A stretch of 64,000 nucleotides of DNA from an uncultured Acidobacteriota bacterium (GTDB lineage: Bacteria > Acidobacteriota > Thermoanaerobaculia > Thermoanaerobaculales > Sulfomarinibacteraceae): assembly GCA_963814875.1 (NCBI GenBank), contig CAWFFJ010000018.1, positions 333,611 through 397,610 of the forward strand, given 5' to 3'. Below are positions 25,772 through 61,365 of the stretch, in pieces. Positions within the stretch are counted from its first letter, which is position 1. Every line of letters begins with the position of its first letter. The notes beneath the pieces were generated by a model. It saw only the letters and a list, made by a program, of their open reading frames with translations, was not told the origin of the DNA and did not search any database. A program made the translations under genes and the position numbers.

Positions 25772-27169
25772 CTAGGCGCCCTCGACAACAAACTCCTCGT
25801 CGCGCTCAGCGGCCTGTCGCTGCCATTCGGGCAGCCAGACGCCGTGTGCCATCGCCCTCAGCTGAGGCTCAAAGAAGAACTCGCGCTCGCCGAAGGCAGG
25901 CTCGAGATCGGTCAACCACCGTGCCTGGGCGTCGAAACGGGCGAAGAAGAGCCGGTTGACCCAGGACTGGTCCCGCCCCTGGATCATCTTCAGCGCGAAG
26001 ACCTTCTCGCCACCCACCTCGGCGATGCCTTCGATCAGCACCTTGCCTGGAGTCGCCGACATCGACGGTCCGCGCACCGTCCTACCCAGGCCGGAGACGC
26101 TGCCCACGGCTTCCGAGAAGATCCGGTAGGCGCGAGCGAGGGGGACCTCGAAGTAGTGCTTCGGTCCGGTGTCCCGCTCGACGAACATGTAGTACGGGAC
26201 CATCCCGAGGCGGACCTCGCTCCGCCACAGGTCGGCCCAGACATCGGCGGCGTCGTTCACGTGCCGGATCAAAGGCGCCTGGCAGCGAATCACAGCGCCT
26301 GTCGCCGTGATCCGCCGGATCGCCTCCTGCACCGCTGCGGTCTCGAGCTCACGCGGATGACTGAAGTGCGCCATGAGAGCAAGCTGGCGGCCGCTCGCGA
26401 CGACCCTCTCGAACAGGCGCAGCAGGTCGTCCGAGTCGGCATCGCTTGTGAAGCGGTACGGCCAGTAGGCCAGAGCCTTCGACCCAAGACGGATCGAAAC
26501 CAGGCGGTCTAGGCGTGGGTCGAGCAGGGCCTCGAAATACCGCTCCAGCACGCTGGTCTTCATGATCAGGGGGTCACCCCCCGTGAACAGCACGTCGCTC
26601 ACCTCGGAATGGCGCTGCAGGTATGCGATGAGCGTGTCCACCTCGCTGTTCGCGAAGCGAAGCTCATCGACCCCGACGAACTGCGCCCAGCGGAAGCAGT
26701 AGGTACAGAAGGCGTGGCAGGTCTGCCCCTGCGATGGAAAGAAGAGCACTGTTTCGCGGTACTTGTGCTGGCAGCCCGGCACCGGTTCTCCGTCGAGAGA
26801 GGGTACGTTGAGCTGCATCTGGCCTGCCGGATGGGGGTTCATCCGCGCCTGGACCCGACGCGCAGCGAAGTGAATCTCCTCCTTGGTGGCACCGGAGGCC
26901 ACCAGATCCTGCATGTGCCGTAGCTCCAGCGGCTCGAGCATTCCCGGCTGCGGGAAGGTGAGCTGGAAGATCGGGTCGCTCGGAATATCGTCCCAGTCGA
27001 TCAGCTCGCTCACGACGTAATCGTTGACGCGAAACGGGAGCACTGCCGAGACCGCCTCGAGGGCGACCCGCTGATCTCCGTTCAACCGCTCGAGCTGCGG
27101 AATACGATCCAGCTGTGCGCGCCCGACGGCGCGATACCGACGCGGGGCAGAAGCGAGAGCTCCGTCCAT
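25772..27169 (-). CDS. KamA-family radical SAM aminomutase (lysine 2,3-aminomutase-like)
   Basis: Cluster motif CHAFCTYCFR (CX3CX2C), DVLFTGGDPL, MAHFSHPRE, VPYYMFVERDTGPKHYF, SATPGKV. AAAGGAGGG RBS precedes ATG 27169. Confidence 0.85.
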   Translation of the reverse strand: MDGALASAPRRYRAVGRAQLDRIPQLERLNGDQRVALEAVSAVLPFRVNDYVVSELIDWDDIPSDPIFQLTFPQPGMLEPLELRHMQDLVASGATKEEIHFAARRVQARMNPHPAGQMQLNVPSLDGEPVPGCQHKYRETVLFFPSQGQTCHAFCTYCFRWAQFVGVDELRFANSEVDTLIAYLQRHSEVSDVLFTGGDPLIMKTSVLERYFEALLDPRLDRLVSIRLGSKALAYWPYRFTSDADSDDLLRLFERVVASGRQLALMAHFSHPRELETAAVQEAIRRITATGAVIRCQAPLIRHVNDAADVWADLWRSEVRLGMVPYYMFVERDTGPKHYFEVPLARAYRIFSEAVGSVSGLGRTVRGPSMSATPGKVLIEGIAEVGGEKVFALKMIQGRDQSWVNRLFFARFDAQARWLTDLEPAFGEREFFFEPQLRAMAHGVWLPEWQRQAAERDEEFVVEGA

Positions 27170-51978: not shown

Positions 51979-51983
51979 CCCAA

Positions 51984-52012
51984 ACAAATCCCTCGCAAAG
52001 CGAGGGATTTGT
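51984..52012. terminator. perfect 13-bp hairpin between convergent genes (bidirectional terminator candidate)
   Basis: ACAAATCCCTCGC-AAA-GCGAGGGATTTGT. It lies 6 nt after the TPR gene stop and abuts the stop codon (52013-52015) of the giant minus-strand gene. Confidence 0.6.
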
Positions 52013-55000
52013 CTAAAAGGGCCTGCCAAAGCCGATATAGAACTTCGGCCCGGAGTTAAGGCCGGGGTTGGCAACCGGCCACGCAATATCTCCCCAGATC
52101 GGCCCGATCGGCGTCGCCCAGCGGAAGCCGAACCCGGCGCCGACCGCCAGGGGCTCCTCCCGTCGGTTCCAGCTCTCCCACGCCTGGCCGGCATCGACGA
52201 AGACCGCAAGCCGCAACCCGCCCCACACCCGAACCCGCAGCTCCTCGTTGAGAATCAGGAGCGCGCCCCCGCCAACCACGTCCGGTATTCCAACGTAGTC
52301 GACGGTGTGTCCGACCGACTCGAACTCGAAGCCCCGGATCGTGCCCTGGCCCCCGGTCTTGAACTTGAGCACCGGATCCAGCTCTCCCGTGAGGGCCACC
52401 GCCACGCCGAGCCGCAGCGACTGGTAGAGGGTGATGTCCCGCCCCGGCGACCATGCCAGGGTGCCGGTGAGGAACGAGCGGGCGGTGTCGAGGTCCGAGC
52501 CCAGCGCCTGCGGGCTCCAGCCGAGGTCGGCAGAGACGTAGTTGCCCCTGCTCGGCAGGAACGGGTTGTCGAGCCGGTCACGATAGAACTGCACTCCGAC
52601 GGTCCCGATATCGGTCGTCGTGTCGTAGGGGAAGATATCCGTTGAGTCGACGTCGTAGTTGTGCACGCGGCTGAAGGTGTAGTACACCCGCTCGACGGCC
52701 CCGACGTTGATCTGCCGGTTCATCTCGAGGGTCGCTTCCCGGGTTTCTCTCCGGTTGACCCAGATCGGGCCCGGCGTGTCGAGCGTGTTGAAATGGACCG
52801 AGCCGGAGACGGTGATGGTGTTGCCCGGCAGCGGAGGCAGGGACAGCAGCACCAGCCCGTCCTGCTCGTCCGAGGCTTTGCGGCCGCGCAGGTTGAGGCT
52901 GAACCCCCTGCCCAACAGGTTGTCGTCACGCAGGTCGAGCACCGCCTCGGTGCCGCGGTCGGAGGTCCACCTCGCGCCGCCGCCGGCGGTCCAGCGGTCC
53001 TTCTCGAAGACTTCGACCTCCACATTCGCGGCATCCGGTCCGGTCGGAATGGAACGAACCTCTACCCGCTGGATCGGCCGGAAGCCTGCGAGGTTCTCAA
53101 TCGTCTGGTCGACCCCGGACGGCGACAGCGGCTGTCCGGGTCGGATCTCGACCCCGTGGCGTACCACGCTTTCCTTGAGGTGCCTGAGGCCACTGATGTC
53201 GACCGACTCGACCATGCGCAGCGGGCCGGGCTCCAGCCGGACCACGACGGTCGGCGCCCTCGACTGATCCGCCCGCTCCACGTCGACCCGAACCGTCGCC
53301 TCGACGTACCCGGCCTCGCGATAGGTCCGACGCATCCGCCGGGCGACGTCATCGAGGCGACGTCGGGAAACCGGGGAACCCGGCGCCAGGTTCTCGCCCT
53401 CCCTCGGAAGGGCACCGAGCGGATCTGTGCCATCCAGCCTCACCGACGCCACCTCGAGGCGAGTGCCGGGATCGACCTCGACAACCACCTCGGCGATGCC
53501 CTTCTCGATCGGCTCCCGCCGGATCGAGACGACCTTCGCGTCGGGATATCCTTCGCGGTCGAGCAGCCTCTCGACGCGGGCCTTCATCGCCGGGACGGCA
53601 TCCTCGAGTGAGGCAAGCTCGGCGGGACTGCCGAGGATCGACGACACGAAGTCCGCCGCTCCGGGAGGCAGCCCGACCACCCGCGGACCGGTCAGCTTCA
53701 GCTTCGGGCCCTCGTCGACCTGCACGACGACCAGATCGCCATCCCGAAGGATATCGATCCGCGCATCGGGATGCTCCGTCGCCGCCAGCCTCCGCTCCAG
53801 GTCACCCTTCATGGTCTGAAGAGCGGTCTTCTCAAGGGGCGGTGGGAGGTAGAGGGCTTCGACCTCGCGGCGCCACGCCGTCTTGACCTTGTCACCCCGG
53901 AACTCGAAGGCCTGGCGCGGGCCTGGCTCCGCGCGGAAGGTCAGCGTACGACGGCGCTCGTCCGTCGATGCCTCACCCTCGACGACCGCCTCGTAGTAGC
54001 CCTCCTCGGCCAGCGCCCGCTCGAGCCTCAACTCACCGACGAAGACCAGGAACGGGTCGAACGGCTGTCCCGGGGTGACTCCGACGGCACGGCGCAGCCG
54101 CCGCTTCGACAGCGGCCACGGGCCCTCGAGATTGACCTTGCGGACGATCGGACCCTCGCCCGCCTCGGGCGACCCGCCCCACGACGCGCGCTCGATCGCC
54201 GCCCAGCCCCACTGCTCGTTGGTCGAGGAGAACCCCTGCAGGGCGAGCCCGGGCAGCTGACGCAGATTCCACAGCTGAAGCAGCGTGGTGGTGTCCTGCG
54301 GCTGGCGCAGGTCGGTGGTGAAGAACAGGGCCAGGTGCCGACCGATGCTCTGGCCGATCGAGAACCGTGTGGCCGGCGGCTTCTCGGTCTCGACCGCGAT
54401 ATCTGCCGGCTCCAGCGCCTCGTTGTTCAGTCCCAGCACCGAGGTCACCCCTTGGGCAAGACCGACCCGCGCAAGATCATCCCAGGTCGCGCCGCCGCCA
54501 CCCGCACCGAACGTCGTCCCCGTTTCGGCCACCAGGTCCACCTGCGGTTCCGCCCCGGGTTCGCCGGTGAGCTCGATCGTCCCCCGCTGCAGCTTCACCG
54601 CCTGGCCGCCGACGGTCAGCACGCCGCCGGGCGCGATGTTGACCTCGCCCACCACCCGGGGCTCGGCCGCGTTCCCCGTGATCGACAGCACCGACCAACC
54701 GAGGTCGAACTTGCCGAGGTTGTTATTGACCTGGATGCCTCCCCGGCCGCGCACGTCAATGTCGAGCAGGATCCCGAACAGTGGGTCGTCCGCAGCCAGC
54801 GGCGCCGTGCCCTCGCCCGCGATCAGGTCCGCGAGGCTGACCGGGGCGTCCCACATACCGCCGTCGAGGACCAGCTCGCCCTCGACCAACGCGAGACCCC
54901 TGCTTGTCGGACCGACCGAAAGGTCGCCGCTCCACCGCGAGATGATCTGCCCGGGCAGGAGAAAGACCACGTCCTTGAGCTCGAAGACGATGCCCTGACC

Positions 55001-57889
55001 GCTTGCGGGGTCCCAACCCCCGCCGAAGGTGACCGTCCCGCGATTGACGCCGGCCGAGCCTTCCCGAATGGTGACCGCGCCGCCGCGAAGATCCGCGATC
55101 AGGCTCAGGTCGCGGATCTCCACGGGCGGATCGCGCAAGACGATGGTGCCGTCGGGGTGCTTCACATGCACGCTTCCGATCGGCGCGTCCCAAGGCCCCG
55201 CGAGCTCCACCGCGAGATGGAGCGGCTTGGTCCCGTGCAACGGTACCGGCAACAACGACAGCAGCTCCGGCGCCAGCTCGGCCTCGAGCGAGGCCCGGAG
55301 GTCCTTGGCCGCGAGGTCCAACCGACCGGCGGCCTCGACTCGGCTCCGCGGTCCGACGAGCTCGACCGGCTCGAGGTCGACCACGGACCCGTCAAGGGTC
55401 ATCACCACCGTCTGCTGGGCCTTGAGATCGATGTTGGCGCCGGTGATCTCGAGCGCTTCGAGGCGGACCTCGAGCGCGCGGTCGGCGGGGTCGGCAGGCG
55501 ACCAGCGCCCGTCCGCGGCAAGGTCGAAGGTCGCTCGGGCGGGCATTTCAGGCTGTCCCAGTGCCGCGAGCAGCTGCGAGGTGTCCATTCCCTGGCCTCG
55601 GATGCGGGCCTGGACCGCTCCGCCCGGTGCGTCAGGCCACAGCCACGACGGCCGCGGAAAGTCGCCAAGCGGCGCCACCACGCGCAGATCGAGCGGGCCC
55701 GGCGCCGCTTCGACCTGGGTAGTCGCCAGCACAATCACCCCACCCGCCATGCCGCCGGTCAGCGCGACATGCTCCACCGCCGGGCTCGCGGCACTGCTGT
55801 GCCACTCGGCGCTGAGCTCGGCCTCCGGGCGTGCGGTCGAGCCCGTCACCCGCAAGCTGCCGTCGAGCCGGCCCGTCAGGGCCTCCGGAAGCTCGGCGAT
55901 CAGCTCGGCCAGCTCGATCCCGTTCCAGTCGAGGGTGAGCTCGAGCGGGCCGTCGAGATCCTGCACCGAGGCGGAGCCGGCGGCGTGCACCTCTCCCCCG
56001 GCAAGCCGAACCGCAGCGGAAGTGACCGTGACACGCTGTGGGGTCGCGGTCGCTTCGAGCTCGGCCTCGTCGACCACCCACCGGTCGATCGCCAACTGTT
56101 TCCCCGACGCTGAAACCTCGGCCTGCCAGCCGTCCGCCGTGAGGTTGAACGTCCCTCGTGCCGTCACGGCCCCTGCGAGAGCCGGCAGGTCCGAACCCGG
56201 TACCCGCGCGGCAATAACGGACAGGTCGGCGGCCCCGGCCTCGAACCGCCCAGCCGCGATTCGCTCGCGCAGAGCCGCCGTACCTTCCGCGGAGGCGGTG
56301 AGCCCGTCGCCGGTGTCGACCGCGGCCTGCCACTCGATCTCGTTCAGGTCACCGCGCGCCGACGCTGCAACGCGCGAGAACTGCTGGCCGGCGAGCACGG
56401 GCGTCTGCCATGCGAGCTCGGTCGCAACCGTCGGAGCCTCGACCGTGCCGCCGAGGCGGAGGTCCATCGTCAGCGGACCGCCTCCGACCTCAGGGAGCGT
56501 CGGCAGGTTCTCGGCCCATCGCCTTGCCTCGGCCTCGAAAGCGGCCGAATCGATCACCTCGAGGTGGAGATCAGCCTCGAGCGCGCCCCCGAGCGCCACC
56601 GTTCCGGCGCCCGTGAGCGTTGCGCCGGGAGCCTCGAGCCGCAGCTCGGAGACGCTCGCCCGACCGTCGGCGAAGCGTGCCGAAGCGGACGCCCGGCCGT
56701 CGTCCCAGACTGCGATCAGGTCCGCCTGTCCCAGGAGGGACGCGGGTTCGACCGGAGAAGGCGGCACGGTCAGGTCAACCGGTCCCGAGAGCCGCAACGA
56801 GGGGGGCAGCCGTACCGGAAGCTCGGACCCGGCCAGCTCGGCAAGCCGAGCCGCCGCGAGGCCGTCGAGCTCCGCGTGGACTGTCGCACTCCCATCGGGC
56901 CGAAGGGTGAACTCCGCGCGTCCCCACCCCGGCCCCGCTGCACTCAGCTTCGGTGCACCATCGGCGGTTTCGATCGCGAGTCGGTCGACAACAATCCCGG
57001 CGACCTCGATCGGCTGGCCGACGTGCCGAAGGTCAAGGCGGAGGCCAACGTCGGCCGACCACCCCACGTCACCGCTGAGGTCGAGACGTCCGACCAGGGC
57101 GGCCCGCGCAGCCAGCTCCGGGTCCCACCACGCCACCACCACGCCCGGCGCCACTTCGAGCTCGACGTGGCCGACTGCTGAGCGGACCCCGCCGTCGCCG
57201 ATCTCGGCGCTGCCGGTCGCATGGAGCTCGACCGCCCCGCCGACCACGAGCCGTGTCACCGAAACGCCGGTGGAGCTCGCGGAGGCCTCGGCCACGGTCG
57301 ACGTCAGGGCGAGGGTGCGTCCTTCCCGGGTCAGCTCGATCGTACCCACGTCGATGCGTGCGCGCGCCGCCGCTCCGCGCAGCTCGCCTGAGAGCTGCAC
57401 GCCCCGTGCGTCGACCGCGACATCCTGAAAGGCCGCCAGCAGGTCCCCCCCGCGCAACGCGAGGTGGTCGATCTCGATCACCCGGAAGGGATCCACTGCA
57501 GCTCCGGTCGAGGGCTCCCTGGAGGTCAGCTCGGGCAGGTCGCCCCTCAGGTCAGCGTGGAGCCCCTCGACGGTGACCTGGCGCAGCCGCGGCACATCGC
57601 GGAAGAGGTCTCGCCACCGCCACCGGACCACGATCTGCTCGACCGTCACCACCGTCCGGCCCTCGGCGCCCACGGCGACGTCGCCGAGCTCGAGCCGCCC
57701 CGGCCACGGGCGGAAGGCGACCGACCCGGCATCGACCCGCCAGCCGGTCGAGTCCGTGATCGTCTTCGTGACTCGGTCCCACCCAGCTCGCTGCACGCCG
57801 GGCAGCGAGACGATCAGCGCGAGACCCAGAACCAGGATCAGAACGCCTGCGAGGCTGATGAGAAGCAGACGGCGGCGCCGTGTCACCAC
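52013..57889 (-). CDS. TamB-like (AsmA-like/DUF490) translocation-and-assembly protein fused to a C-terminal five-POTRA plus Omp85 beta-barrel (TamA/BamA-like) module
   Basis: One uninterrupted 1958-codon ORF. N-terminal signal-anchor RRRRLLLISLAGVLILVLGLALIV. Long beta-rich repeats. The TamB C-terminal signature ends RFSIGQSIGRHLALFFTTDL...LLQLWNLRQLPGLALQGFSS (about aa 1230). The linker SWGGSPEAGEG is followed by five POTRA-like units and a barrel ending GFGFRWATPIGPIWGDIAWP...KFYIGFGRPF. Confidence 0.85.
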   Translation of the reverse strand: MVTRRRRLLLISLAGVLILVLGLALIVSLPGVQRAGWDRVTKTITDSTGWRVDAGSVAFRPWPGRLELGDVAVGAEGRTVVTVEQIVVRWRWRDLFRDVPRLRQVTVEGLHADLRGDLPELTSREPSTGAAVDPFRVIEIDHLALRGGDLLAAFQDVAVDARGVQLSGELRGAAARARIDVGTIELTREGRTLALTSTVAEASASSTGVSVTRLVVGGAVELHATGSAEIGDGGVRSAVGHVELEVAPGVVVAWWDPELAARAALVGRLDLSGDVGWSADVGLRLDLRHVGQPIEVAGIVVDRLAIETADGAPKLSAAGPGWGRAEFTLRPDGSATVHAELDGLAAARLAELAGSELPVRLPPSLRLSGPVDLTVPPSPVEPASLLGQADLIAVWDDGRASASARFADGRASVSELRLEAPGATLTGAGTVALGGALEADLHLEVIDSAAFEAEARRWAENLPTLPEVGGGPLTMDLRLGGTVEAPTVATELAWQTPVLAGQQFSRVAASARGDLNEIEWQAAVDTGDGLTASAEGTAALRERIAAGRFEAGAADLSVIAARVPGSDLPALAGAVTARGTFNLTADGWQAEVSASGKQLAIDRWVVDEAELEATATPQRVTVTSAAVRLAGGEVHAAGSASVQDLDGPLELTLDWNGIELAELIAELPEALTGRLDGSLRVTGSTARPEAELSAEWHSSAASPAVEHVALTGGMAGGVIVLATTQVEAAPGPLDLRVVAPLGDFPRPSWLWPDAPGGAVQARIRGQGMDTSQLLAALGQPEMPARATFDLAADGRWSPADPADRALEVRLEALEITGANIDLKAQQTVVMTLDGSVVDLEPVELVGPRSRVEAAGRLDLAAKDLRASLEAELAPELLSLLPVPLHGTKPLHLAVELAGPWDAPIGSVHVKHPDGTIVLRDPPVEIRDLSLIADLRGGAVTIREGSAGVNRGTVTFGGGWDPASGQGIVFELKDVVFLLPGQIISRWSGDLSVGPTSRGLALVEGELVLDGGMWDAPVSLADLIAGEGTAPLAADDPLFGILLDIDVRGRGGIQVNNNLGKFDLGWSVLSITGNAAEPRVVGEVNIAPGGVLTVGGQAVKLQRGTIELTGEPGAEPQVDLVAETGTTFGAGGGGATWDDLARVGLAQGVTSVLGLNNEALEPADIAVETEKPPATRFSIGQSIGRHLALFFTTDLRQPQDTTTLLQLWNLRQLPGLALQGFSSTNEQWGWAAIERASWGGSPEAGEGPIVRKVNLEGPWPLSKRRLRRAVGVTPGQPFDPFLVFVGELRLERALAEEGYYEAVVEGEASTDERRRTLTFRAEPGPRQAFEFRGDKVKTAWRREVEALYLPPPLEKTALQTMKGDLERRLAATEHPDARIDILRDGDLVVVQVDEGPKLKLTGPRVVGLPPGAADFVSSILGSPAELASLEDAVPAMKARVERLLDREGYPDAKVVSIRREPIEKGIAEVVVEVDPGTRLEVASVRLDGTDPLGALPREGENLAPGSPVSRRRLDDVARRMRRTYREAGYVEATVRVDVERADQSRAPTVVVRLEPGPLRMVESVDISGLRHLKESVVRHGVEIRPGQPLSPSGVDQTIENLAGFRPIQRVEVRSIPTGPDAANVEVEVFEKDRWTAGGGARWTSDRGTEAVLDLRDDNLLGRGFSLNLRGRKASDEQDGLVLLSLPPLPGNTITVSGSVHFNTLDTPGPIWVNRRETREATLEMNRQINVGAVERVYYTFSRVHNYDVDSTDIFPYDTTTDIGTVGVQFYRDRLDNPFLPSRGNYVSADLGWSPQALGSDLDTARSFLTGTLAWSPGRDITLYQSLRLGVAVALTGELDPVLKFKTGGQGTIRGFEFESVGHTVDYVGIPDVVGGGALLILNEELRVRVWGGLRLAVFVDAGQAWESWNRREEPLAVGAGFGFRWATPIGPIWGDIAWPVANPGLNSGPKFYIGFGRPF

Positions 57890-58107: not shown

Positions 58108-59166
58108 ATGAAAGCCGTGATTCTCGGGACCGGGATGCACGTTCCGCAACTGGTGATTCGCAACGACGACCTGGCGCGGATCATGGAGACCACGGACGAG
58201 TGGATCCGGGTGCGGACCGGAATCGAGGAGCGGCACTACGCCGAGCCGGGCGTGGCGTCCTCCGACCTTGGGGTGGAGGCCGCGCGGGCCGCGCTCGCCG
58301 ACGCGGGCATCGCCCTCGAGGAGATCGACTACGTCGTCTTCGCCACCATGACGCCGGACTACTACTTCCCGGGCTCCGGACCGATCCTCCAGCACAAGCT
58401 CGGCCTTCCCATGGTCCCGTGCCTCGACATCCGCCAGCAGTGCGCCGGCTTCATCTATGCGCTCCAGGTCGCGGACGCGATCATCCGTTCCGGCCAGTAC
58501 AAGAAGCTGCTGTTGGTGGGATCCGAGGTTCACACCTCCTTGCAACCGTGGTCCGACTCCACCTGGCGTGTGCTGCTGGGCGAAACGCCCGGCCCCGTCA
58601 CGCCGGACGAGTGGCAGCGCAACAACGCGACCCGCGACCGCACCGTCCTCTTCGGAGACGGCTCGGGCGCCGTCGTGATCGGCGCCGCCGACGGCGAACG
58701 GGGCATCCTCGACGTCCTGCTCCATTCCGACGGCGCCAACGTCGAGCGTTTGTGGACCAAGGCCGGAGGCAGTGCCTTCCGGCCCTACTTTGACGCCACC
58801 ATGGTGGAGACCGGGGACATCACTCCGGTGGTCGAAGGCCGCGAGGTGTATCGCCTGGCGGTGCGGTTCATGCCCGAGGTGACCCTGGCGATCCTCGAGC
58901 GCAACGGGTTGACCGTGGACGACCTCGACCTCGTGATCATGCACCAGGCCAACCTGCGCATCAACGAGGGCGTCCAGAAGCGGCTCGGGCTGCCGAACGA
59001 GAAGGTCTTCAATAACATCCAGAAGTACGGCAACACCACCGCGGCCACGATCCCGATCGCGTTCCACGAGGCGCGCAAGGCGGGTCGCGTGAAACCGGGC
59101 GACCTGGTGTGCTTCGTCGGTCTCGGCAGCGGCCTCAACTGGGGCGCGGTCCTCTACCGGGCGTGA
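58108..59166 (+). CDS. fabH: beta-ketoacyl-ACP synthase III (KAS III)
   Basis: Active Cys context DIRQQCAGFIYAL, HQANLRI, GNTTAATIP, 352 aa with an internal insertion. Confidence 0.9.
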   Translation: MKAVILGTGMHVPQLVIRNDDLARIMETTDEWIRVRTGIEERHYAEPGVASSDLGVEAARAALADAGIALEEIDYVVFATMTPDYYFPGSGPILQHKLGLPMVPCLDIRQQCAGFIYALQVADAIIRSGQYKKLLLVGSEVHTSLQPWSDSTWRVLLGETPGPVTPDEWQRNNATRDRTVLFGDGSGAVVIGAADGERGILDVLLHSDGANVERLWTKAGGSAFRPYFDATMVETGDITPVVEGREVYRLAVRFMPEVTLAILERNGLTVDDLDLVIMHQANLRINEGVQKRLGLPNEKVFNNIQKYGNTTAATIPIAFHEARKAGRVKPGDLVCFVGLGSGLNWGAVLYRA

Positions 59167-60113: not shown

Positions 60114-60148
60114 ACCAGCATCTGTCACCGGTCCTCCGGTGAGAGATG

Positions 60149-60799
60149 CTAGGACTGCGCCGGGAGCTGCGAAGCGCGCCACAGCAGGTCGACCTCGTCA
60201 CGCCGGGTCTCGAAGAGCAGACGACGGAGGTCCGCGTTGTCGGGCTCGTGAACCAGGGCACGCTCGATCGACGCGATGGCTTGGTCGATGACCTTGAGGT
60301 TCTCGTCGATGACGGCTCGGGTGCGCGGAGTGAGCGACTCACGGCGCTGGTCGAAGACCCGCTCGAGCTGCCCGCTGAGGCGGATCAGCTCGGCGTCGGT
60401 GCCACGCCAGCTCGCCTCCATCAACCCGGCCGGCGCGCTCGCGCTCTCCCGCGACGCCCCCCCGGACACCGACTGTCCGTGCCCCGCGACCAGCGCACCG
60501 AGCGCCGCCGCGACGACCAGCGCGGCAGCCATCGCAAGCGCGCGCAGCACCGGTCGACGAACGTGAACGGAAGCGCCCGCGCCCAGCCGGGCCGCGATCC
60601 GCGGCCACAGGTCGCGCTCCGGCGTCACCGTCCGCGGCAGCGACCGAGCGGCCGCGACCAGCGAGTGGAGGTCGACCAGCTCGGCGCGGCATGCGGCACA
60701 CGACTCGAGGTGCGTGAGCACAGCGGGCTTGCGAGCAGCATCGAGCTCGCCGTCTACCAGATCGTCGAGAAGTGGTCGAATCTCACTACAGCCGTTCAT
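60149..60799 (-). CDS. anti-sigma factor (zf-HC2 type, single TM)
   Basis: N-terminal HLESCAACRAEL (HxxxCxxC), TM ALAMAAALVVAAALGALVAG. ATGA overlap with the upstream sigma-factor stop. Confidence 0.8.
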   Translation of the reverse strand: MNGCSEIRPLLDDLVDGELDAARKPAVLTHLESCAACRAELVDLHSLVAAARSLPRTVTPERDLWPRIAARLGAGASVHVRRPVLRALAMAAALVVAAALGALVAGHGQSVSGGASRESASAPAGLMEASWRGTDAELIRLSGQLERVFDQRRESLTPRTRAVIDENLKVIDQAIASIERALVHEPDNADLRRLLFETRRDEVDLLWRASQLPAQS

Positions 60800-61365
60800 G
60801 ACAGAGCCTCCCGCAGCAGTCGCCGCGCCCGGTGCAGCTGCGCCTTCGAAGTCCCGACCGCGACCCCGAGCAGGCGTCCGATCTCCTCGTGGCGGTAGCC
60901 CTCGACGTCGTACAGGACGAACACAGTCCGCGCCCCGTCCGGCAGGCCGGCAATGGCCCGCTCGAGGTCGACCGCAACCCCCGGCTCGCTCGCGGGCGCC
61001 GCCTCGGCGGCCGCCTCGATCACATCGCTCGGGCTTTCTCTCAGCTCCCGCCGAATCCGGCTGCGGTGGTGTCCGAGCACCACGTTCACCGTCAGCCGGT
61101 GAAGCCAGGTCGAAAACGCGCTGTCTCCCCGGAACGACCCGAGGTTGCGCCATGCCCTCACGAATGCCTCCTGAGCGAGCTCTTCGGCGACGTCGCGCCG
61201 GCCGGACATCCGCAGGCACAGCGCAAAGACCCGTCCCGCGTTGGCCCGGTAGAGCGCCTCAAAGGCGCCCGCCGCGCCCTGCCGCGCTCGCCGGACGAGG
61301 ATGCTCTCGTCGACGACGGCCACACCATCGGCCGCGTCACCCGGGTCGTCGATCACCTCGGCCAT
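60796..61365 (-). CDS. ECF-type RNA polymerase sigma-70 family factor
   Basis: Region 2 AEELAQEAFVRAWRNLGSFRGDSAFSTWLHRLTVN; region 4 RTVFVLYDVEGYRHEEIGRLLGVAVGTSKAQLHRARRLL. Start ATG 61365; the ORF opens at 61584. Confidence 0.9.
   Translation of the reverse strand: MAEVIDDPGDAADGVAVVDESILVRRARQGAAGAFEALYRANAGRVFALCLRMSGRRDVAEELAQEAFVRAWRNLGSFRGDSAFSTWLHRLTVNVVLGHHRSRIRRELRESPSDVIEAAAEAAPASEPGVAVDLERAIAGLPDGARTVFVLYDVEGYRHEEIGRLLGVAVGTSKAQLHRARRLLREALS

Follow-up and report, generated by a model that had tools for sequence, protein, structure and literature searches.

Does a gene that reads without interruption from a TamB-like protein into an Omp85 barrel encode one real polypeptide, and what would such a protein do in the cell envelope? 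This question is raised by a locus of an uncultured Acidobacteriota bacterium (assembly GCA_963814875.1, contig CAWFFJ010000018.1, positions 333,611 to 397,610 of the forward strand), from which a stretch of 64,000 nucleotides, here called the window, was analysed. Within the window, a TamB-like part and an Omp85 part, which correspond to the two components of the TamAB machine, share a single open reading frame (ORF). The gene, referred to as the fusion gene, is delimited as follows.

52013..57889, minus strand: whole fusion gene, 1958 codons plus a TAG stop
57889, minus strand: GTG start of the fusion gene, with a second GTG immediately after it
52015-52013, minus strand: TAG stop of the fusion gene

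The initial annotation had reported a single uninterrupted ORF of 5877 nucleotides. Translation of the minus strand yielded 1958 amino acids (aa) without any stop or frame change, and all motifs quoted at that time were recovered, namely RFSIGQSIG (residues 1175-1183), WGWAAIERASW (residues 1227-1237), SWGGSPEAGEG (residues 1236-1246, nt 54152-54184), PIVRKVNLEG (residues 1247-1256) and KFYIGFGRPF (residues 1949-1958). The location given for the ORF was correct and its strand had been omitted; the minus strand fits the linker coordinates of that annotation, and translation of 52013-57889 on the plus strand encounters many stops. The GC content of the region is 67-72%, and within the fusion ORF it amounts to 0.85 at third codon positions (GC3) as compared with 0.51 at second positions (GC2), which is the pattern of a genuine gene in a high-GC genome. 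Long ORFs read from the other strand of 52013-57889 are the usual shadow ORFs.

An uninterrupted frame could likewise arise if a sequencing or assembly error had merged two adjacent genes at the junction, and eight related copies from MFD assemblies do carry frame errors, so that such errors occur in this type of data. A scan of species-representative genomes, for which six close sequences were used and which consequently recovered Thermoanaerobaculia only, yielded 42 loci. Their labels read Acidobacteriota, Thermoanaerobaculia, Sulfomarinibacteraceae or Holophagae, two short contigs being the only exceptions, which assigns the window to the class Thermoanaerobaculia. The nearest genome, the metagenome-assembled genome (MAG) SRP214966_co3_119, is 93-96% identical over partial contigs. 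Thirty loci match the query end to end, and 22 of them consist of one intact ORF with a length of 1955-2133 codons (stop to stop); the intact copies include SPAdes- and MEGAHIT-style contigs as well as MFD contigs of 0.3-1.7 Mb. The remaining eight full-length copies, all of them from MFD assemblies (L022, L024, L025, L028, L029, L037, L041 and L043), are disrupted either by an in-frame stop or by frame changes numbering from one to seven, as a result of which automatic gene calls would split the protein there. These errors lie at scattered positions, and none of the eight frame-disrupted copies displays a clean stop-plus-start at the junction.

Protein searches led to the same result. The closest proteins in a word-indexed search (P0001-P0004) share 95, 75, 70 and 57% identity with the fusion protein and have the same length (1940-1958 aa), and about 60 distant proteins of 1,900-2,440 aa carry the same set of Pfam domains. 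Moreover, a 501-residue fragment centred on the junction was searched against 1.84 billion cluster representatives (50% identity), which resulted in 544 matches, 254 of them at E <= 1e-10. Of the 150 top-ranking representatives, 137 have a single best match that runs across the junction, so at least this number of clusters span it. The junction is also under purifying selection: as compared with L003, dN/dS is 0.25 overall and 0.14-0.36 in every segment, the individual figures being 0.14 (TamB terminal strands), 0.36 (junction) and 0.16 (barrel). The comparison of fused versus split genes in related genomes, which the initial annotation had proposed as a check, thus revealed intact fusions in 22 independent genomes and, among the full-length copies, no clean split at the junction. 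As there is in addition neither a signal peptide nor a start context for a separate Omp85 gene, an origin by sequencing or assembly error has a vanishingly small probability and is effectively refuted. The fused protein is almost certainly real and functional. The fusion is the standard state in the class Thermoanaerobaculia and is also present in Vicinamibacterales and Bryobacterales, and it is hence not a one-off. Its spread to other orders rests on the source names of the matched proteins, where the named distant matches come from Acidobacteria, Vicinamibacterales and Bryobacterales.

Three observations touch on this distribution. The MAG CAZMED01 (binchicken_co176_97) harbours two full-length fusion genes, L021 and L034, that are only 36% identical; they may be ancient paralogues, or the bin may be mixed. 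A distant protein of the fusion type with 1908 aa (P0237, MEN9845477.1; P0058 cluster) is labelled as stemming from a Pseudomonadota MAG, and the short loci L032 and L042 are labelled Deltaproteobacteria and Chondromyces. P0237, L032 and L042 may indicate that the fusion architecture exists outside Acidobacteriota, or the bins may be contaminated.

The N-terminal part of the protein comprises the following features.

57803..57868, minus strand: signal-anchor transmembrane helix LLLISLAGVLILVLGLALIVSL, residues 8-29 (Kyte-Doolittle scan, AlphaFold2)
57443..57886, minus strand: AsmA/YhdP/DUF748-type N-terminal region, residues 2-149 (Pfam)
54527..57742, minus strand: long beta-rich TamB-like groove, residues about 50-1121 (AlphaFold2, about 70 consecutive strands)
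54515..54883, minus strand: match to the Pfam TamB (DUF490) family PF04357, residues 1003-1125

The assignment of this part as TamB-like, made in the initial annotation, is one on which Pfam scans, family-profile searches and AlphaFold2 models agree. The sequence RRRR precedes the signal-anchor helix, which AlphaFold2 places at residues 5-28 and which lies in the only membrane-type hydrophobic segment that a hydropathy scan detected in the whole protein (residues about 5-29). The N-terminal region matches PF05359 (E 1.2e-11), PF13116 (E 2.8e-8) and PF05170 (30.5 bits, cut-off 29.8). A profile built from 25 family members aligned to residues 593-1249 of the 1259 residues of E. coli TamB (9xdc_B) with E 3.9e-33, and its alignments to E. 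coli TamB comprise residues 8-153, 251-355, 418-671 and 593-1249.

For structure prediction, AlphaFold2 was run with a 35-sequence alignment on two overlapping pieces, residues 1-1200 and 801-1958. The model of residues 1-1200, with a mean predicted local distance difference test (pLDDT) score of 82.5, shows a helix at residues 5-48 followed by about 70 consecutive strands, and the strand pLDDT in the beta-rich body is mostly 80-94. In the model of residues 801-1958 (mean pLDDT 81.5, predicted template modelling score 0.61), consecutive strands continue up to residue 1121 and are followed by a low-confidence segment at residues 1123-1168. When the N-terminal model was compared by Foldseek with the PDB, which holds only partial TamB chains, the TamB chains 9xdd_B and 9xdc_B were matched with a probability of 1.00 (TMt 0.45 for 9xdd_B); the other matches were mostly low-TM elongated beta-sheet lipid binders, including LptD chains. 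With regard to the features by which Heinz et al. (2015) delimit the TamB family, the protein possesses the signal anchor, the long beta-rich body and DUF490. The aromatic-ended C-terminal strand resembling that of outer-membrane proteins (OMPs) is conserved but internal, so that it is not free.

The C-terminal part is composed of the elements listed here.

53003..54151, minus strand: five POTRA domains, residues about 1247-1629 (AlphaFold2, Pfam, Foldseek)
52016..52993, minus strand: 16-stranded Omp85 barrel, residues 1633-1958 (PF01103, AlphaFold2 strand count)
52328-52339, minus strand: loop-6 IRGF motif, residues 1851-1854
52016-52045, minus strand: C-terminal beta-signal KFYIGFGRPF, ending with F1958

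Five POTRA domains and an Omp85 barrel with a terminal aromatic residue had been predicted for this part, and Pfam, the AlphaFold2 strands, Foldseek and F1958 bear the prediction out. Pfam detects POTRA in the fusion protein with 83 bits, and AlphaFold2 resolves five beta-alpha-alpha-beta-beta units at residues 1248-1629, which is the number found in BamA. PF01103 matches residues 1657-1958 with 116 bits. The 16-strand barrel, the loop-6 motif, the terminal aromatic residue and the POTRA repeats are thereby present as hallmarks of Omp85 proteins of the BamA/TamA type, whereas a cleavable signal peptide of its own is lacking. With the 801-1958 model as query, Foldseek produced an alignment of about 800 columns with full-length BamA (E 4e-41) as well as a match to TamA (E 4e-31), and the family profile scored 276 bits with BamA and 202 bits with TamA. 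The domain and structure check that had been suggested along with the genome comparison therefore agreed with the initial reading, as Pfam and the two AlphaFold2 models give TamB, linker, five POTRA domains and Omp85 barrel. Distant relatives have their domains in the same order, the TamB match coming first, then the POTRA domains, and last the Omp85 barrel at the C-terminus.

Where the two halves meet, the following elements are distinguished.

54179..54367, minus strand: TamB C-terminal amphipathic strands, residues 1175-1237 (profile alignment, AlphaFold2)
54179-54211, minus strand: last TamB-type strand WGWAAIERASW, counterpart of the E. coli TamB terminal ALDLLYQFEF
54152..54178, minus strand: linker GGSPEAGEG, residues 1238-1246, GG conserved and the rest variable
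ASWGGSPEAGEGPIVR: junction-spanning tryptic peptide of the fusion protein

AlphaFold2 predicts five short strands at residues 1175-1237 (model residues 375-437). In the profile alignment, ...LYLEAVSGVDQ of E. coli TamB faces ...LALQGFSSTNEQ, from which it follows that the next segment, WGWAAIERASW, is the equivalent of the TamB terminal strand. Judged by this alignment, the fusion point follows the aromatic residue (W1237) with which the terminal-strand equivalent ends. The junction alignments show that Thermoanaerobaculia share the pattern ...IER..WGG in the terminal strand, and its equivalent in other Acidobacteriota is Y-E-F-R-H-E-L-x-F-G-G, which resembles a beta-signal. It is followed by a hydrophilic, variable linker of about 7-9 residues here and of 10-25 elsewhere, and then by the first POTRA strand. 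The linker is marked by a dip in pLDDT and lacks secondary structure (model residues 438-447). The initial annotation had located it properly (approximately 54150-54182, as compared with nt 54152-54184), and its extent of 11 aa does not hold, as SWGG is the conserved TamB end. Among Thermoanaerobaculia, the length of the linker is identical in 20 of 23 sequences. In two related Thermoanaerobaculia fusions, L007 and L010, the linker, whose length is otherwise fixed, is extended by an insertion of 15 residues (PAGLASFIAS.RD..).

The fusion was also said to join exactly those regions that are known to interact, which is in line with the boundary at the terminal-strand equivalent, given that this strand pairs with TamA beta-1 in E. 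coli. Cryo-EM of TamAB revealed that the last strand of TamB pairs with TamA beta-1 and that strands beta-3 to beta-6 are located inside the barrel, and the crosslinks T267C/E1258C and E269C/Q1256C indicate that the pairing is antiparallel (PMC12800296). The docked and the undocked state of the TamB C-terminal strand both exist in vivo, and TamB binds phospholipid (PMC12800296). Antiparallel pairing positions the C-terminus of E. coli TamB at the periplasmic rim of the barrel, and a chain that continues from there into the periplasm is thus topologically possible in the docked state. As the linker of about 9 residues would reach at most about 30-35 Å, docking on beta-1 would require POTRA1 to be close to the rim of the barrel.

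The main rival explanation likewise draws on how well the end of the TamB half is conserved. The chain might be a polyprotein that is exported as a whole and cut by the periplasm's proteases at or near the aromatic-Gly-Gly site into an ordinary TamB, whose beta-signal-like C-terminus would then be free, and an ordinary Omp85 protein, in which case the fusion would serve only co-export and a 1:1 stoichiometry. Conservation of the aromatic residue and GG is strong at precisely the position at which E. coli TamB terminates, the segment after GG varies in sequence as a spacer would, and the C-terminus of TamB is free in every solved TamAB complex (PMC12800296). However, neither a protease site nor an adjoining protease gene is conserved, and the fixed length of the linker points to a structural constraint rather than to a disposable spacer. 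Moreover, the position of the E. coli TamB C-terminus at the periplasmic rim renders docking compatible with an uncut chain. We therefore regard cleavage into two ordinary proteins as improbable.

Neither the hydropathy scan nor the junction alignments revealed a hydrophobic stretch from the junction onwards that could serve as a signal peptide of the Omp85 half. Given that the protein contains a single hydrophobic segment, the Omp85 half can reach the periplasm only within the fused chain.

We consider it probable that the fusion protein works as a single-chain, covalently tethered machine of the TAM type (translocation and assembly module) that spans the envelope. What the analysis shows is the order of the domains, the homology of the two halves, the position of the fusion point, that no signal peptide lies inside the chain, and that the gene is conserved under purifying selection. 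The chain would stay uncleaved and reside in both membranes, and its further workings are modelled on E. coli TamAB. The N-terminal signal-anchor would hold the fusion protein in the inner membrane, and the export of the Omp85 half would depend on it. Approximately 1200 residues of TamB-type beta-groove would span the periplasm, and the predicted hydrophobic groove could carry glycerophospholipids from the inner to the outer membrane as proposed for TamAB, whose lipid transport is treated in the accessible portions of PMC8593681 and PMC8912898. [quoted passage not shown] The last TamB-type strand may then dock on barrel strand beta-1 within the same chain, and the lateral gate of the barrel might serve as the exit for lipids and possibly as an insertase for some OMPs. 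By virtue of the tether, the ratio of both parts would be fixed at 1:1, and the TamB end would stay beside its own barrel even when undocked.

Several observations weigh against this reading. The PF04357 score of the fusion protein is marginal (23.6 bits, cut-off 22.4), and the equivalog models fall far short of their cut-offs, with 15.4 bits for TamB (NF047952, cut-off 825), 107 bits for TamA (NF047950, cut-off 625) and 172.2 bits for BamA (TIGR03303, cut-off 297.15). Scores so far below these thresholds characterise the protein as a distant relative rather than a strict orthologue. In relatives with the same architecture, PF04357 reaches 99-140 bits over profile positions 5-377 of 381, so the low score can be attributed to divergence in the lineage of the fusion protein. 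In addition, a docked strand would force the arm of five POTRA domains into a loop, an arrangement unseen in solved BamA structures.

In a bolder version, the TamB strand would permanently act as the hybrid-barrel partner of beta-1, with the POTRA domains looping from seam to seam. The resulting closed trans-envelope conduit would replace separate TamA and TamB proteins as the principal, possibly essential, route by which phospholipids reach the outer membrane in bulk in these Acidobacteriota. This version appears rather unlikely; if true, it would imply that a chain of about 205 kDa is threaded from the Sec translocon to BAM while being anchored in the inner membrane.

The similarity of the Omp85 half to BamA leads to another explanation, in which this half would be the main or only BamA of the organism, that is, an insertase fused to a lipid bridge with a primary role in OMP assembly. 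The five POTRA domains and the 16-strand barrel are as in BamA, the BamA models score higher than the TamA models, and there is no other Omp85 gene within the window. However, the BamA equivalog score of 172 bits is well under the cut-off of 297, and cultured Acidobacteria are reported to possess a canonical BamA together with a second, TamB-linked copy (PMC4494059). Furthermore, the closest stand-alone relatives are TamB-linked Omp85 proteins, one MAG carries two divergent fusion genes, and a barrel that needs BAM for its insertion argues for a separate BamA. Hence, we attach very little probability to the Omp85 half being the principal BamA, and return to the single-chain TAM-like machine in what follows.

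How could such a gene have arisen? The initial annotation had argued that the order TamB-Omp85, being the reverse of the canonical one, excludes a simple fusion of neighbouring genes by loss of a stop codon. A profile search with the Omp85 half, whose output listed stand-alone relatives with the fusions themselves being absent, identified stand-alone Omp85 proteins of about 950-1010 aa as its closest unfused relatives; a word-indexed search with the Omp85 half alone returned one match, which is truncated. All four stand-alone Omp85 relatives that were inspected lie in TamB-type gene neighbourhoods. In two of them (L045/P0240 and P0242), the gene order is accB, tamB (1358 or 1363 aa) and omp85 (956 or 962 aa), and the tamB stop and the omp85 start overlap by one base, the sequence being TGATG in L045. 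The L045 TamB ends with ...YALEFRVRRVF, like the strand preceding the linker of the fusions, and the L045 Omp85 protein begins with a typical signal peptide. The other two display a different arrangement, with the order omp85, a 222-aa gene and tamB in L046; L047 has the same thiF-omp85 start together with a 249-aa gene, and its contig ends before any tamB. The Omp85 proteins of the tamB-omp85 type are closer to the fused protein P0048 than those of the type in which a further gene separates omp85 from tamB (252 versus 184 bits).

With tamB-omp85 operons among the closest relatives, and with the TamB-BamA gene order being known from Spirochaetes (Borrelia; PMC4494059, PMC5582053), the argument from gene order fails. 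An origin by fusion of neighbouring genes is plausible from these sequence comparisons. At their N-terminus, the stand-alone Omp85 proteins exceed the fused half by approximately 160-210 residues, which amounts to roughly two additional POTRA domains, so that a fusion of neighbours would still need the loss of the Omp85 signal peptide and of these residues.

Two side observations concern the split operons. On the P0242 contig, accC is also present beside accB. The small conserved gene after omp85 (L046 11931-12599; L047 10162-10911) encodes a signal peptide, shows start/stop overlaps and has no Pfam match on record.

How does the fusion protein relate to known systems? It shares with E. coli TamAB (9xdc/9xdd; PMC12800296) the signal-anchored TamB, the long beta-groove and the amphipathic strands ending with an aromatic residue, as well as the Omp85 partner, in which POTRA domains precede a 16-strand barrel. 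In contrast to TamAB, it is one polypeptide instead of two, so that its TamB C-terminus is not free, its Omp85 half lacks a signal peptide, and it contains five POTRA domains where TamA has three. The order is TamB-Omp85, whereas the E. coli genes are arranged as tamA followed by tamB. The split tamB-omp85 operons (L045/P0240, P0242) have the same order as the fusion but encode two proteins, the Omp85 protein with its own signal peptide. The TamB-linked BamA duplicate of cultured Acidobacteria (PMC4494059) is likewise an Omp85 paralogue dedicated to TamB in the same phylum; there, the order is BamA-TamB, the proteins are separate, and up to seven POTRA domains are reported. L046 and L047 show the omp85-first arrangement of these cultured strains. 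TIC236 and TOC75 of chloroplasts are plastid TamB and Omp85 homologues, but separate proteins.

One polypeptide that bridges the envelope for phospholipid traffic and resides in both membranes has been proposed in Veillonella parvula, where MlaD combines an inner-membrane transmembrane domain and MCE domain with a C-terminal outer-membrane beta-barrel (PMC10665443). Its fold is unrelated (MCE hexamer, helical tunnel, 10-strand barrel), retrograde transport is proposed, and it has no Omp85 or POTRA module. LptD resembles the fusion protein in that a beta-jellyroll lipid-bridge element delivers into a barrel with a lateral gate, but it lacks an anchor in the inner membrane and does not belong to the Omp85 proteins.

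Searches of the open-access literature yielded no account of a naturally fused TamB-Omp85 protein. Heinz et al. 2015 (PMC4494059) use neither 'fusion' nor 'fused', fusion terms are absent from the TamL paper, a survey of the Omp85 superfamily uses 'fusion' only for BamA-BamB-like WD40 proteins, and the Veillonella paper with its Mla phylogenomic survey (PMC10665443) does not mention a TamB-Omp85 fusion. What would be new is the one-chain form of a machine that normally consists of two parts. Public databases contain many of these proteins under unspecific names such as 'YaeT', 'TamB domain-containing protein' or 'BamA/TamA family outer membrane protein', and such inconsistent labels from annotation pipelines hide the fusion architecture.

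Being conserved in a lineage of phylum level, the fusion argues in the manner of a Rosetta stone for the TamB-Omp85 pair, and not TamB by itself, as the functional unit. It also imposes a natural topological constraint, in that the end of the last TamB strand must lie within about 9 residues of POTRA1. [quoted passage not shown] It also poses a problem of biogenesis, namely a BAM-inserted barrel on a chain that is anchored in the inner membrane. The finding should thus be of interest to specialists in outer-membrane biogenesis, and the protein provides a single-chain construct with fixed stoichiometry for structural and reconstitution work.

The genomic surroundings of the fusion gene contain the following features.

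51982..52014, minus strand: 15-bp perfect hairpin, terminator-like, starting inside the fusion-gene stop codon
51112..51978, plus strand: secreted tetratricopeptide repeat (TPR) protein of 288 aa, convergent with the fusion gene, Sec signal peptide MRSYMAVAAALLLASTALA/QP
58108-59166, plus strand: fabH, divergent, upstream of the fusion gene

The fusion gene is monocistronic, with fabH upstream, which is divergent in this way in the clade of the window, and with the hairpin and the convergent gene downstream. The hairpin folds as RNA with -25 kcal/mol (z -6.3), and none of 200 shuffled sequences was as good; a scan for consensus terminators did not call it owing to the short T-run. It lies between convergent genes and is probably a bidirectional terminator. 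A homologue of the TPR protein is encoded at the same position in most Thermoanaerobaculia loci (L003-L043), with 31-43% identity and with 97% in L040, and the TPR neighbour may be an accessory partner of the fusion protein. Fusion loci of the L021/L026 type lack this neighbour. An assignment of the TPR protein as BamD was rejected for now, as it matches no BamD model and has a Sec signal peptide without a lipobox.

No AsmA-like gene other than the fusion gene is present within the window either. Otherwise, the window consists of ordinary chromosomal DNA that includes metG, thyA, glgA and genes for two-component systems and for the 2-oxoglutarate dehydrogenase complex. An ORF of 465 aa at 25772-27169 (minus strand) has no Pfam match at E up to 1e-5. 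Another one of 250 aa at 60146-60898 (plus strand), searched with a limit of E 0.001, has none either; it overlaps the start of a sigma-factor ORF on the other strand and is possibly a shadow ORF. In other Thermoanaerobaculia (L004-L041), a FabH-like gene with 25-29% identity is located 0.5-3 kb beyond the TPR gene. Genes for fatty-acid synthesis thus recur beside fused and split systems, in the form of fabH, the FabH-like gene and accB.

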